IMG/VR virus record: IMGVR_UViG_3300001598_000001
Location: 1-64,000 of that record
Reading direction: 5' to 3' (one strand)
Source: a virus
Taxonomy: Duplodnaviria > Caudoviricetes
DNA: 64,000 nt
The notes beneath the pieces were generated by a model. The model was not told the origin of the DNA. It did no database searches and worked only from the letters and a program-made list of their open reading frames with translations. Made by a program: the position numbers and the translations under genes. Shown here piece by piece: positions 57,232 to 61,569 of the stretch (the stretch's first letter is position 1; every line of letters begins with the position of its first letter).

Positions 57232-57260
57232 TTGCATTTTTTATAAAAACCCAATATAAT
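57232..57260 (+). promoter_or_regulatory. CCCAT-type promoter for the capsid operon
   Basis: TTGCAT-17bp(..ACCCAA)-TATAAT. Confidence 0.75.
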
Positions 57261-58006: not shown

Positions 58007-58498
58007 ATGAAAAAATATTTTGGATACACAAAAAGCTCTGATGAAGTTTTTAATTCATTAGTTGAAAATACCCTTGAATTAGCTAGAGAAGCTCACGAAG
58101 GTAAAAAATCAGCAAATTATGCTGAAAAGAATTCTGACTTACTTGTTGCTATGGGTAAGAAAGCTATTGAAGGTACTAGATTTGAAGCTGATTTTGAAGC
58201 TGAAGGTTTAGCTATCTACAATAAGCCAATGGTAAAATCTAACACCACAGTTAGAGAAAACTTCAACGCAGTTATTGCACAAGTTGTTACTGCAATAGTT
58301 CCTGAAGTTGTCAACGATACTTTCTCACAATTTATCGCTGAAGTTCACCAAGTTGGTTATGGTGAAACTGCAAGATTCATTATTGAATCTAACGATTTAT
58401 TCAAAGTCAATTCTAAAGCTGAAGGCGTTAGAAAAGGCGTTGATCAACCTATGTTTGATGATGAAATTACTGTAAATGCAAAACCAGTCACAGTCGAT
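58007..58498 (+). CDS. Major capsid protein, exon 1
   Basis: FIAEVHQVGYGETARF; ends AKPVTVD at the 5' splice site. Confidence 0.85.
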
Positions 58499-59001
58499 TA
58501 ACCTGTTTACTGTCAAGTAAACTAACCAGTCGGCATATACAGAAATGTGTATGTAGTGCTAAGAGTTATTAGTCTTAGCCAACACTATCTTAATTGCTGG
58601 AAATCCCTAAAGCTATATAAACTACAACGTAAAACCTATTATTAGGTTTAAGCGTGAATGTTACGAAAGTAGAAAAAATTATATAGATGGCGCATGGTCA
58701 AATCCTAAACGCATATCCAATCATAAAATGGGAAATCAGCATCCAAGCTCGAAAGAGAAGGTTCAACGACTATCTCCCGTGAGGAGAGTAGGATCAAGTG
58801 ATCCGAAAGAGATAGGCCTTAACGTGTCATGACGAAGGATATAATATAGTCTATGCTTATATGAGAATATAAGAAGTTCACTAAAGAACTGTGTGAAAAA
58901 TAACGAATTCACATGAATTATGAAATATTTGAATATATGAATAAATAATCTTTATATATATTACAATTAAAAATAAAATAAACCCACTATAAAATGAAAT
59001 A

Positions 59002-59065
59002 TAGTAGTGGGACAGCAGGTTCGAAACTGTTTTCAATGACTTATCTAGTTGAATTACCACTATTA
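59002..59065 (+). ncRNA. Three-way-junction RNA element (copy inside the intron)
   Basis: TAGTAGTGG/CCACTATTA, AGCAG/CTGTT, TTCAA/TTGAA. Confidence 0.55.
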
Positions 59066-59068
59066 TTA

Positions 59069-59182
59069 TATTTACCTGATAAACAGTCTGCTGGAGAAAA
59101 TAAACGTATGCATGATTTAGGTTATCACAAACTTTGTGATTGTGGTACAAAAACTTGGGTGTATACTAAATATTGCAATTAA
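59069..59182 (+). pseudogene. Deleted remnant of an endonuclease gene paralogous to 59962-61497
   Basis: QSAGENKRMHDLGYHKLCDCGTKTWV versus QAAGEVARMHNKGYYRICDCGTKTWI. Confidence 0.85.
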
Positions 59183-59240
59183 TAACAATAATTAATTGTA
59201 GTATATATAAAGATTATTAAATATATTCAAAATTTCTCAG

Positions 59241-59834
59241 TGTTGTATTGATTGGTACCCATTTGCTGCTGGAATTTTCGACATGGGTAACTTTGCCCTA
59301 AAGATCGGTAGATCTTTCATGGCATACATTTTCTTAAAGGCTGTTAGAGGTATGACAGCTGCAACTAGTGCTTATGGTGCTGCTTATACTGTTGCTGGTG
59401 TTACACCAACTTTATTTGGTACTTTAAGAGAAAGAGTATCAGCTGCTAATGGTGGTATGAATGTTATTGCCATTGGTACTGCTGTTGCTTTAAGCCAATG
59501 TTCATTAGGTGGAAACTATCAAGTTGAAATTGGTGAAGAAATGAACAAAGTTGGATACTTAGATCAATATCTTGGTGTTCCATTAATTGGTTTAAAGAAC
59601 GTTTTAGTTCCAGGAACTACTAACACTACTGCTCAACTAGCTTTACCAGATGACAAGATTTATATGATTCCTGTCGGTGGAAGCAGACCAGTTAAGATCG
59701 TCTTCGAAGGCGACGAAGTTAGCGTTATGTTCAACCCAGAAACTACTTCTGACAAGAGATATGGATTATCTGTTGAATTAAGAGTTGGTGTTGAAGCTGT
59801 CTTAGGTGCGAAGTACGGAACTATCACTTTATAA
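59241..59834 (+). CDS. Major capsid protein, exon 2 (spliced product 361 aa)
   Basis: CCIDWYPFAAGIFDMGNF..GYLDQYLGVPL..PVKIVFEG. Confidence 0.85.
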   Translation, partial: CCIDWYPFAAGIFDMGNFALKIGRSFMAYIFLKAVRGMTAATSAYGAAYTVAGVTPTLFGTLRERVSAANGGMNVIAIGTAVALSQCSLGGNYQVEIGEEMNKVGYLDQYLGVPLIGLKNVLVPGTTNTTAQLALPDDKIYMIPVGGSRPVKIVFEGDEVSVMFNPETTSDKRYGLSVELRVGVEAVLGAKYGTITL

Positions 59835-59835
59835 T

Positions 59836-59864
59836 TTGTAAAATTATAAAAAACCCGTTATAAT
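59836..59864 (+). promoter_or_regulatory. CCCAT-type promoter (CCCGT variant) of the endonuclease gene
   Basis: TTGTAA-17bp-TATAAT. Confidence 0.7.
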
Positions 59865-59870
59865 ATAAAT

Positions 59871-59929
59871 AAGTGGGACAGTGGGTTGCAAACCATTTCT
59901 AAATACCTATATTATTTAGATTACCACTT
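59871..59929 (+). ncRNA. Three-way-junction 5' leader of the endonuclease gene
   Basis: AAGTGG/CCACTT, AGTGG/CCATT, TCTAAATA/TATTTAGA. Confidence 0.55.
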
Positions 59930-59961
59930 TTTTAAAAATCTATATAGGAGAGGAAAATACA

Positions 59962-61497
59962 ATGATAACCGTTGATAAAGAAGACATAGTAGAATATTAT
60001 ATTAATCAAAACCATTCAGTCCAACAAACAGCTGAACATTTTAATATTAATTGTAAAACTTTTTTTGGATGGCTACACAGATTAAATATTCACAAAGACA
60101 AAACATTAAGTCAACAAAATGCACAAAAAGCATTAAAAGATAAGCACATTATGGAAAATAATCATCCAACTAAAGATGAATTATATCAATATTATATTGT
60201 TCAAAATCATTCTGAAACAGAATGTTGTCAATATTTTTCAGTATCACGTTCGTCTATTCAACGTAGGATTAAAAAGTATCAATTAAATAAAGATACACAA
60301 CAAATTCAAAAATGTACCCAACATACTGTTTTAAATAAATATGGTTATAATTTTGTTTTACAAGATCCACAAATACAAAAAATAAATAAAGCACGACTAC
60401 AAGAAAAATACGGTGTACAAAATATTGCACAGCAATATATTCAACATTTAGATATATGGAATGATAAAGATAAATTTGTAAAATTTTTAAAACAGCAAAA
60501 TGTAAAAATGACAGCAGTAAGTTTGGGTAGATATTTTAATGCTCATATAAGTACTTGTTTGAGAAAAATCCATAGTTTGGGGTTAGAAAATCTTATTGAT
60601 ATTAAGCCTGCTACATCGCAATATGAACAAGAAATTATTGATTTATTACATAATGAGTTTAATATTGATAATATTATTCAAAATGATAGAACAGTATTAA
60701 ATGGGAAAGAAATTGATATTTATTTACCAGATTATAATTTTGGAATTGAATTTAATGGTGAATATTGGCATTCAGAAATTGGTCACCCTCATTATGCTGA
60801 AAGAAATGGTAGATCCACTTATCACCAACAAAAATCTTTAGAGGCAGAACAAAAGAATGTTTTTTTATTTCATATTTTTGAACATGAATGGTGTGAACCA
60901 TTTACAACTGTAAATCCTAAATTTACAAATAGTCGTAAAAAAATTATTAGTCGTTTAAGATCAATATTACATTATAATGAAAAGACTATAGGTGCTCGTC
61001 AATGTGTAATAAAAGAATTAAGTTATGATGAAAAAACACAATTTCTAGATTGTAATCATTTTCAAGGTAATGATATATCTAGTAATTATTATTTAGGATT
61101 ATTTTATCAAAATGAGTTGGTTAGTTGTATGACTTTTGGTAAATCTAAATACAAAAAATATACCTGGGAACTAAGTAGATTTTGTAATAAAGAAAATTAT
61201 CAAATTCTTGGTGGTGCCTCAAAGTTACTTAAATATTTTGTAGATAATAAAATGTGTAAAAATGATATTTTAGTTTCTTACAGTGATATTACTAAAACTA
61301 GTGGAAATTTATATAAAACATTGGGTTTTACTAATACTCAAATTAATGATCCTAATTATTGGTGGGTTAATTTTAATACTGGTGATGTAAGAACTAGATA
61401 TCAAGAACAAGCTGCTGGTGAAGTAGCGCGTATGCATAATAAAGGATATTATAGAATCTGTGATTGTGGTACAAAGACATGGATTTTGAAAAAATAA
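59962..61497 (+). CDS. Free-standing Hef-like homing endonuclease (HTH repeats + PD-(D/E)XK nuclease + GNAT/Mom-like C-terminal domain)
   Basis: EIDIYLP..GIEFNGEYWHS..FHIFEHEW; NHFQG, WELSRF, GGASKLL, SYSD, GNLYKTLGF. Confidence 0.82.
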   Translation: MITVDKEDIVEYYINQNHSVQQTAEHFNINCKTFFGWLHRLNIHKDKTLSQQNAQKALKDKHIMENNHPTKDELYQYYIVQNHSETECCQYFSVSRSSIQRRIKKYQLNKDTQQIQKCTQHTVLNKYGYNFVLQDPQIQKINKARLQEKYGVQNIAQQYIQHLDIWNDKDKFVKFLKQQNVKMTAVSLGRYFNAHISTCLRKIHSLGLENLIDIKPATSQYEQEIIDLLHNEFNIDNIIQNDRTVLNGKEIDIYLPDYNFGIEFNGEYWHSEIGHPHYAERNGRSTYHQQKSLEAEQKNVFLFHIFEHEWCEPFTTVNPKFTNSRKKIISRLRSILHYNEKTIGARQCVIKELSYDEKTQFLDCNHFQGNDISSNYYLGLFYQNELVSCMTFGKSKYKKYTWELSRFCNKENYQILGGASKLLKYFVDNKMCKNDILVSYSDITKTSGNLYKTLGFTNTQINDPNYWWVNFNTGDVRTRYQEQAAGEVARMHNKGYYRICDCGTKTWILKK

Positions 61498-61569
61498 ATA
61501 TAATATTGTACTATGCCTTCTTTATTGAAGGTGTTTTTAATTAAAAGGAAACAAAAGGAGAAAAAAATT

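Follow-up and report, generated by a model that had tools for sequence, protein, structure and literature searches.

The capsid gene of an uncultured phage from the gut or rumen is interrupted by a predicted self-splicing group I intron, and the long stem that closes this intron encloses what is left of an endonuclease cassette. With a probability of about 0.85, the intron belongs to a family which carries such a cassette inside its closing stem, and the sequence found here is the intron's own cassette after an internal deletion. The window that was analyzed is a stretch of 64,000 nucleotides from the start of a phage record, which is complete and has 131,489 bp, direct terminal repeats and a G+C content of 29%. 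Coordinates given without a prefix are those of the window, and the features described for the capsid region all lie on its plus strand.

The capsid gene and its intron

Two open reading frames at 58007-58501 and 59283-59834 were identified as the two halves of one gene, and in combination they matched an uninterrupted 361-aa protein. Exon 1 (58007-58498), an open reading frame which is contiguous with exon 2 in intron-less relatives, encodes residues 1-164, and exon 2 (59241-59834) encodes residues 165-361 and the stop codon. In more than 30 intron-less homologues and related contigs, residue 164 of exon 1 directly abuts the first residue of exon 2 with no gap, which fixes the junction at 58498|59241. 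A search of the phage genome showed that the capsid gene is present in a single copy. Therefore, the intron would have to splice. The product is probably a member of the YonB family of SPbeta-type capsid proteins, a label which is based on precomputed PF27364 matches on homologues, an Atlas score of 0.98 and the gene order. AlphaFold models of the protein reached a pLDDT of 31 from the single sequence and of 51.5 from 22 sequences, both too poor for a fold search, and sequence and profile searches of the PDB with the capsid protein gave no match.

The predicted intron comprises 742 nt (58499-59240), with boundaries taken from the intron-less alleles. The RF00028 covariance model matched at 58527-58873 with 55.7 bits against a cut-off of 50 (cmscan, model positions 1-253), and this was the only match to the model in the genome. 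The alignment covers the ribozyme core up to P9, which is a small hairpin at 58856-58873. The first codon of the intron is an in-frame TAA and its last base is the G at 59240; when the intron was read with TGA as tryptophan, no longer open reading frame was obtained. GUCGG at 58529-58533 is the probable internal guide, for which pairing with UCGAU at the end of exon 1 (58494-58498) is predicted, with a U.G pair at the splice site. The same GUCGG occurs in the intron of the related phage L017, and the exon likewise ends in CGAU.

P9 is followed by two small hairpins (58875-58914), which are conserved in the related phages L016 and L017, and then by a composite closing stem of 5, 11 and 27 bp. 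The 5' arm of this stem lies at 58922-58970 and the 3' arm at 59192-59236, ending 4 nt before the 3' splice site. The 27-bp arms (58944-58970 and 59192-59218) form 26 Watson-Crick pairs and one G.U pair. The minimum free energy fold of 58874-59240 adds 11 bp (58928-58938 with 59221-59231) and 5 bp (58922-58926 with 59232-59236) and leaves 4 nt ahead of the terminal G at 59240. The energy of this region was -92.1 kcal/mol, compared to -55.1 kcal/mol for shuffled sequences (z = -7.8). An earlier reading of the window, made from the sequence only, had described a stem of these three segments closing 4 nt before the splice site, and both the pairing of the arms and the fold confirmed it. The same reading had named it the P9 hairpin; since it is the third hairpin after P9 proper, the stem is instead regarded as an extension of P9.

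The free-standing endonuclease gene

Downstream of exon 2 lies a free-standing cassette, which is located between the capsid stop codon and the apparent original capsid terminator. It consists of a promoter box CCCGTTATAAT (59854-59864), an intact leader RNA with the form of a three-way junction (59869-59930) and a gene encoding a 511-aa protein (59962-61497), hereafter called the neighbour. At the ribosome-binding site, the sequence AUAUAGG (59942-59948) is complementary to the loop of hairpin 2 in the leader (CCUAUAU, 59906-59912), and this complementarity can be read in three intact copies of the leader.

In the 511-aa protein, two HTH repeats (HTH_28 at E 3e-7 and a second repeat) and DUF7487 are accompanied by a putative Vsr-like core and, at the C-terminus, a GNAT-like domain. 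Pfam REase_MTES_1575 was matched with an E-value of 0.005 only, and the family profile gave a weak match (E 0.05, 15.7 bits) to PDB 3R3P, the entry for I-Bth0305I, in which D252, N265, H270 and D280 of the family were aligned with D196, N208, H213 and D222 of I-Bth0305I. This intron-encoded phage enzyme is the prototype of the EDxHD (Vsr-like) homing endonucleases (PMC3239194; PDB 3R3P). Like I-Bth0305I, the family has N-terminal HTH/NUMOD-type repeats, here followed by a putative Vsr-like core; in contrast to it, the proteins of the family have roughly double the length, contain DUF7487 repeats and end in an additional GNAT-like domain of ~180 aa. The 511-aa protein is considered a candidate Vsr-like (EDxHD-type) homing endonuclease. 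The family has more than 1,300 database members, among which no functional name was found (all are annotated as 'hypothetical protein'), and a literature search for DUF7487 returned no paper mentioning it.

The 3' flank of the neighbour contains a segment (61494-61532), overlapping a terminator-like hairpin, that is complementary to codons 3-15 of the same gene (59968-60006). The two segments are 85% complementary over 39 nt, with a duplex energy of -36.7 kcal/mol (z = -8.2), and the complementarity was absent from the four other family members tested. It may represent a translation throttle or the scar of an inverted gene fragment.

Contents of the closing stem

The closing stem of the intron encloses about 220 nt. 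In order, these contain a CCCACTATAAA box, a three-way-junction leader, a junction of about 20 nt, and the 3' end of an endonuclease gene (34 codons and the stop). The box (58983-58993) is promoter-like and belongs to the promoter class of the phage itself, with the last base of the -10 element changed from T to A. The genome contains 19 other boxes of this class, CCCA(T/A)TATAAT and close variants, which all end in TATAAT; the box in the intron is the sole member ending in TATAAA. Boxes of the CCCA(T/A)TATAAT type (e.g. at 1623, 2267, 10844, 57250 and 117043) mostly precede a ribosome-binding site by a few tens of bases, and the one at 57250 is located ahead of the capsid module.

The leader remnant (58999-59066) can still be folded into the three-way junction and has a mean column identity of 74% to the leader of the neighbour. 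Its hairpin 2 has 5 bp only and a 12-nt loop and is the weakest among the 39 leaders compared. The coding remnant (59078-59182) includes a segment (59078-59179) that matched the last 30 residues of the neighbour at 18 positions (E 5e-13), with 71% identity at the DNA level. It aligned to residues 481-511 of the neighbour only; the nuclease core (residues 246-310) is missing and the remnant has no catalytic domain. In an alignment of four full-length family members and the remnant (A3), all 13 invariant residues of the C-terminal segment are kept, which fits a recent deletion and would also fit selection on the remnant. The box survey, the leader alignment and the C-terminal match bear out the earlier description of a loop with a decayed promoter, the leader and about 30 C-terminal codons, from an element of which the middle part is lost.

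A YLPD fragment of the nuclease had been listed as well. The four codons are present at 59069-59080, and they are either a fragment of a catalytic motif or a chance match. By chance, an in-frame tetrapeptide match of the YLPD type to the neighbour was obtained in 2% of simulated junctions and to any of four family members in 7%, and blastn-short gave no nucleotide-level support for YLPD, so that the sequence stands but its assignment to the nuclease is weak.

Intact endonuclease genes in homologous introns

Homologous introns were found in L016, L017 and L178. All three interrupt the capsid gene directly after residue 104, and their 5' exons end in CGAU. They contain intact endonuclease genes encoding 582 aa (L016), 504 aa (L017) and about 570 aa (L178), which directly follow the post-P9 hairpins and belong to the same family as the remnant. 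In alignment A4, the window was about 80% identical to L016 and L017 in the core, in the hairpins following P9 and in the 5' arm of the closing stem. A composite stem of 31-43 bp surrounds the cassette in the window, L016 and L017 and ends 3-5 nt before the splice site; in L016 and L017 it has 31-36 bp and the cassette within it is intact. The sequences of the stem arms differ between these three introns, and both arms change together. Since the arms change together and the stem is also present around intact cassettes, it is interpreted as the device with which the intron loops out its cargo and not as the end of a transposon.

The introns with an intact gene sit at insertion site 104, and intact alleles at site 164 are inferred from proteins alone. 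Public assemblies encode at least 15 distinct N-terminal capsid pieces that end exactly at residue 164 (...TID or ...TVD), and many C-terminal capsid pieces of 183-184 aa are present in the protein database. Therefore, the intron at site 164 appears to be common. A C-terminal piece of 183 aa and the 494-aa family member P0087 are both assigned to a contig of 133,874 bp, and a site-164 intron with an intact endonuclease gene probably exists. Intron-less and intact-gene (at site 104) forms were seen among the relatives and the deleted form in the window, which provides the comparison of alleles proposed in the sequence-only reading. With an invariant 21-mer of the intron core as the query, only L016, L017 and one unrelated phage were found in IMG/VR.

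The contig of 133,874 bp (P0178, P0073, P0087 and P0124) apparently encodes a 104-aa N-terminal and a 183-aa C-terminal capsid piece, and apparently contains both capsid introns and two full-length endonuclease genes. A 230-kb phage has a more distantly related intron of this family (L138:6990-8484), in which a TnpB (IS605 OrfB) gene follows P9, an arrangement as in IStrons (PMC4227781). Just upstream, the sequence at L138 6800-6865 resembles the 3' terminus of another intron within this gene.

Origin of the remnant

When the C-terminus of the remnant was compared with 120 family members, the closest were the 494-aa proteins P0068 (25/28 identical residues) and P0087 (24/32), and the signature GENKRM..GYHK is common to these two proteins and the remnant. 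The neighbour, with its 18 of 30 residues, ranked in the bottom 15% of the 120 homologues. Hairpin 1 of the remnant leader has the same sequence as in L021 and L092, whereas hairpin 1 of the neighbour has that of L017. As the C-terminus is nearest to the 494-aa proteins and hairpin 1 differs, it is very unlikely that the remnant was copied from the neighbour. The remnant had been called a miniature copy of the neighbouring element, which is not supported on these grounds, and a paralogue of the 511-aa nuclease, which holds for membership of the same family and not for descent from the neighbour.

The presence of an intact gene at the same place in sister introns and a best C-terminal match elsewhere than in the neighbour together indicate that the remnant derives from the endonuclease gene of the intron itself. 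One of the two explanations offered originally, the decay of an intron-encoded endonuclease, is strongly supported by the sister introns, in which the intact gene has the same position within the same kind of long stem. The remnant may be orthologous with the 494-aa lineage, as suggested by ~30 residues and the common assignment to the contig of 133,874 bp. Scans of IMG/VR for close relatives of P0068 and P0087 found none.

In L017, one TTGACA-N17-TATAAT module serves both endonuclease genes and one ordinary gene. The promoters in the window and in L017 are of the type of the resident phage, which suggests that the cassette of the remnant had adapted to this phage lineage. Decay of endonuclease genes recurs in the family: L161 lacks ~1.35 kb from within its free-standing endonuclease gene, a clean deletion that distinguishes it from the otherwise near-identical L170 (L161:5900-5925 compared with L170:5915-7265), and in the corresponding spacer of L148 and L157 nothing but a leader is left.

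The leader RNA

When IMG/VR was scanned for the pattern of the leader motif, at least 119 stretches were obtained, and they peaked at the expected spacing. MAFFT with RNAalifold did not align the variable hairpins and was replaced by constrained folds of each sequence. In these, 39 of 39 distinct leaders tested folded into the same three-way junction, a count which shows consistency and is not an unbiased statistic, since the 39 leaders had been pre-selected for hairpins. Among the 39 sequences, most positions in the leader helices show three to five different Watson-Crick pair types. On these folds and pair changes, the leader is a real and widespread RNA. No family was found for it in Rfam.

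The motif (GUGGGACAG, hairpin, UUUY, hairpin, RAUUACCAC; L018-L136, IMG/VR) also precedes GIY-YIG, HNH and TnpB genes, and in some phages it precedes ordinary genes, namely those for the portal, a class II aminoacyl-tRNA synthetase, a clamp loader and a NUDIX protein. Solo leaders, with no endonuclease gene, were observed between the capsid gene and the next gene in two phages (L148:5628-5669 and L157:4489-4536). Their closing stems have covaried, with AUGG/CCAU and GCGG/CCGC replacing GUGG/CCAC, and the leader may therefore be functional by itself. In hairpin 1, the loops of the remnant (59023-59030) and the neighbour (59889-59896) contain the palindromes UUCGAA and UUGCAA, respectively, each of which could pair with itself and not with the other.

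Alternative explanations

The alternative that survives best, and is nevertheless considered unlikely, is collaborative homing in trans, in which the 511-aa enzyme would cut the intron-less allele at or near codon 164 and so mobilize the intron. The layout mirrors that of T4 mobE and the defunct I-TevIII (PMC2790892) and that of F-CphI, which adjoins the ORF-less psbA intron of cyanophage S-PM2 in an example of collaborative homing (PMC3984707; PMC6083498). As with F-CphI, the free-standing gene is immediately downstream of the intron-bearing gene, here 0.6 kb from the insertion site, and of the four alleles with an intron that were seen as DNA, two (the window and L017) also have a free-standing copy. 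However, the gene also follows the capsid gene in the intron-less L149, L170 and L161 (in L161 in its deleted form) and is absent from the intron-bearing L016 and L178; the free-standing element can clearly exist without the intron. Both were present in 2 cases, the intron only in 2, the free-standing gene only in 3 and neither in 28, which, with the deleted form of L161 counted as free-standing and phylogeny ignored, gives a one-sided Fisher p of about 0.09 and is not significant. In addition, a shared target is not expected, because the neighbour is 42% identical to P0068, a member of the lineage closest to the remnant, and a search of both cassettes for a copy of the intron-less junction found none. 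The intron also differs from the psbA intron of S-PM2 in that it is not ORF-less by origin and holds the wreck of its own gene, and the nuclease family is a different one from that of F-CphI with its Endo VII motif.

It is very unlikely that the remnant is a shortened secondary copy of the neighbouring cassette, formed by ectopic recombination or duplication. The two share the promoter class and the type of leader within one genome, with DNA identities of 71-74% at their ends, but the promoter type is simply that of the resident phage, as in L017, and the intact gene is already found at this spot in the sister introns. The C-terminus and hairpin 1, described above, point away from the neighbour as well.

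An equally improbable possibility is that the remnant has been retained for a function, either as a leader that modulates the leader of the neighbour or as a C-terminal peptide of 24-62 aa. The 13 retained invariant residues, a GGAG that precedes an internal ATG at 59108 by 12 nt and the persistence of solo leaders with covarying closing stems in L148 and L157 would agree with this; the damaged -10 element, the degraded hairpin 2 and the hairpin-1 loops, which cannot pair with each other at their centres, argue against it.

Homing endonucleases move by double-strand-break repair and not by recognition of repeat ends. A MITE-like non-autonomous element with 27-bp terminal inverted repeats, mobilized by the neighbour, is hardly credible. 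In its favour, a copy with an internal deletion is framed by long inverted repeats that are nearly perfect, and the gene of the neighbour is flanked by its 39-nt repeat of 85% complementarity, but no target-site duplication was noticed, the former repeat is homologous to the closing stems around intact genes in L016 and L017, the latter lies partly within the coding region and is not shared by the four other members, and a genome search found no other full or miniature copy. The pair of an autonomous and a non-autonomous element, the second explanation offered originally, is not supported for the same reasons, as its 'terminal repeats' are the conserved closing stem of the intron and occur once in the genome.

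Discussion

The reading preferred here, in which the remnant is the internally deleted cassette of the intron itself, would imply the following history. In this intron family, the long stem before the 3' splice site would loop out a complete endonuclease expression cassette, with a promoter of the resident type, the three-way-junction leader, a gene for a Vsr-like/EDxHD-type protein of roughly 500 aa and, at the 3' end, a short tail. A deletion that began at the ribosome-binding site and reached about codon 480 would have removed about 1.45 kb in this phage, leaving behind the promoter box with a damaged -10 element, the weakened leader and the last 30-34 codons. The closing stem would still bring the 3' splice site to the ribozyme core, and splicing and capsid production would therefore be unaffected or even helped. 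The intron would no longer home by its own enzyme and would be kept by vertical descent. Co-conversion may also contribute, if the free-standing paralogue cuts genomes lacking the endonuclease during mixed infections and carries the intron along; this part is speculative and is put forward tentatively. It is rather doubtful whether whole cassettes travel between the capsid 3' spacer and the closing stem of the intron, with the free-standing paralogue then maintaining the intron by co-conversion.

The closest precedent appears to be the nrdB group I intron of T4, with a defunct, deleted I-TevIII and the free-standing mobE, for which co-conversion was shown (Wilson and Edgell, 2009; PMC2790892). 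The T4 arrangement seems to be conceptually repeated here: a phage group I intron contains a deletion remnant of its own endonuclease gene, of which intact versions exist in relatives, and a free-standing endonuclease gene in the adjacent spacer could carry the intron by co-conversion. An intact I-TevIII is reportedly present in phage RB3. In contrast to T4, where MobE and I-TevIII are unrelated, the defunct and the free-standing genes belong to one family and have the same leader RNA; moreover, the host gene is the capsid gene, and the system is known from sequence alone.

The remnant represents a well-known stage in the decay of homing endonucleases and not a new kind of system. For annotation, the split capsid gene should be treated as one spliced gene, and the remnant should not be annotated as a gene. 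The locus shows a clean stage of the cycle in which homing endonucleases invade, decay and are lost; intron-less, intact-gene and deleted alleles of one capsid gene can be compared side by side, and the endonuclease family involved is large and uncharacterized.
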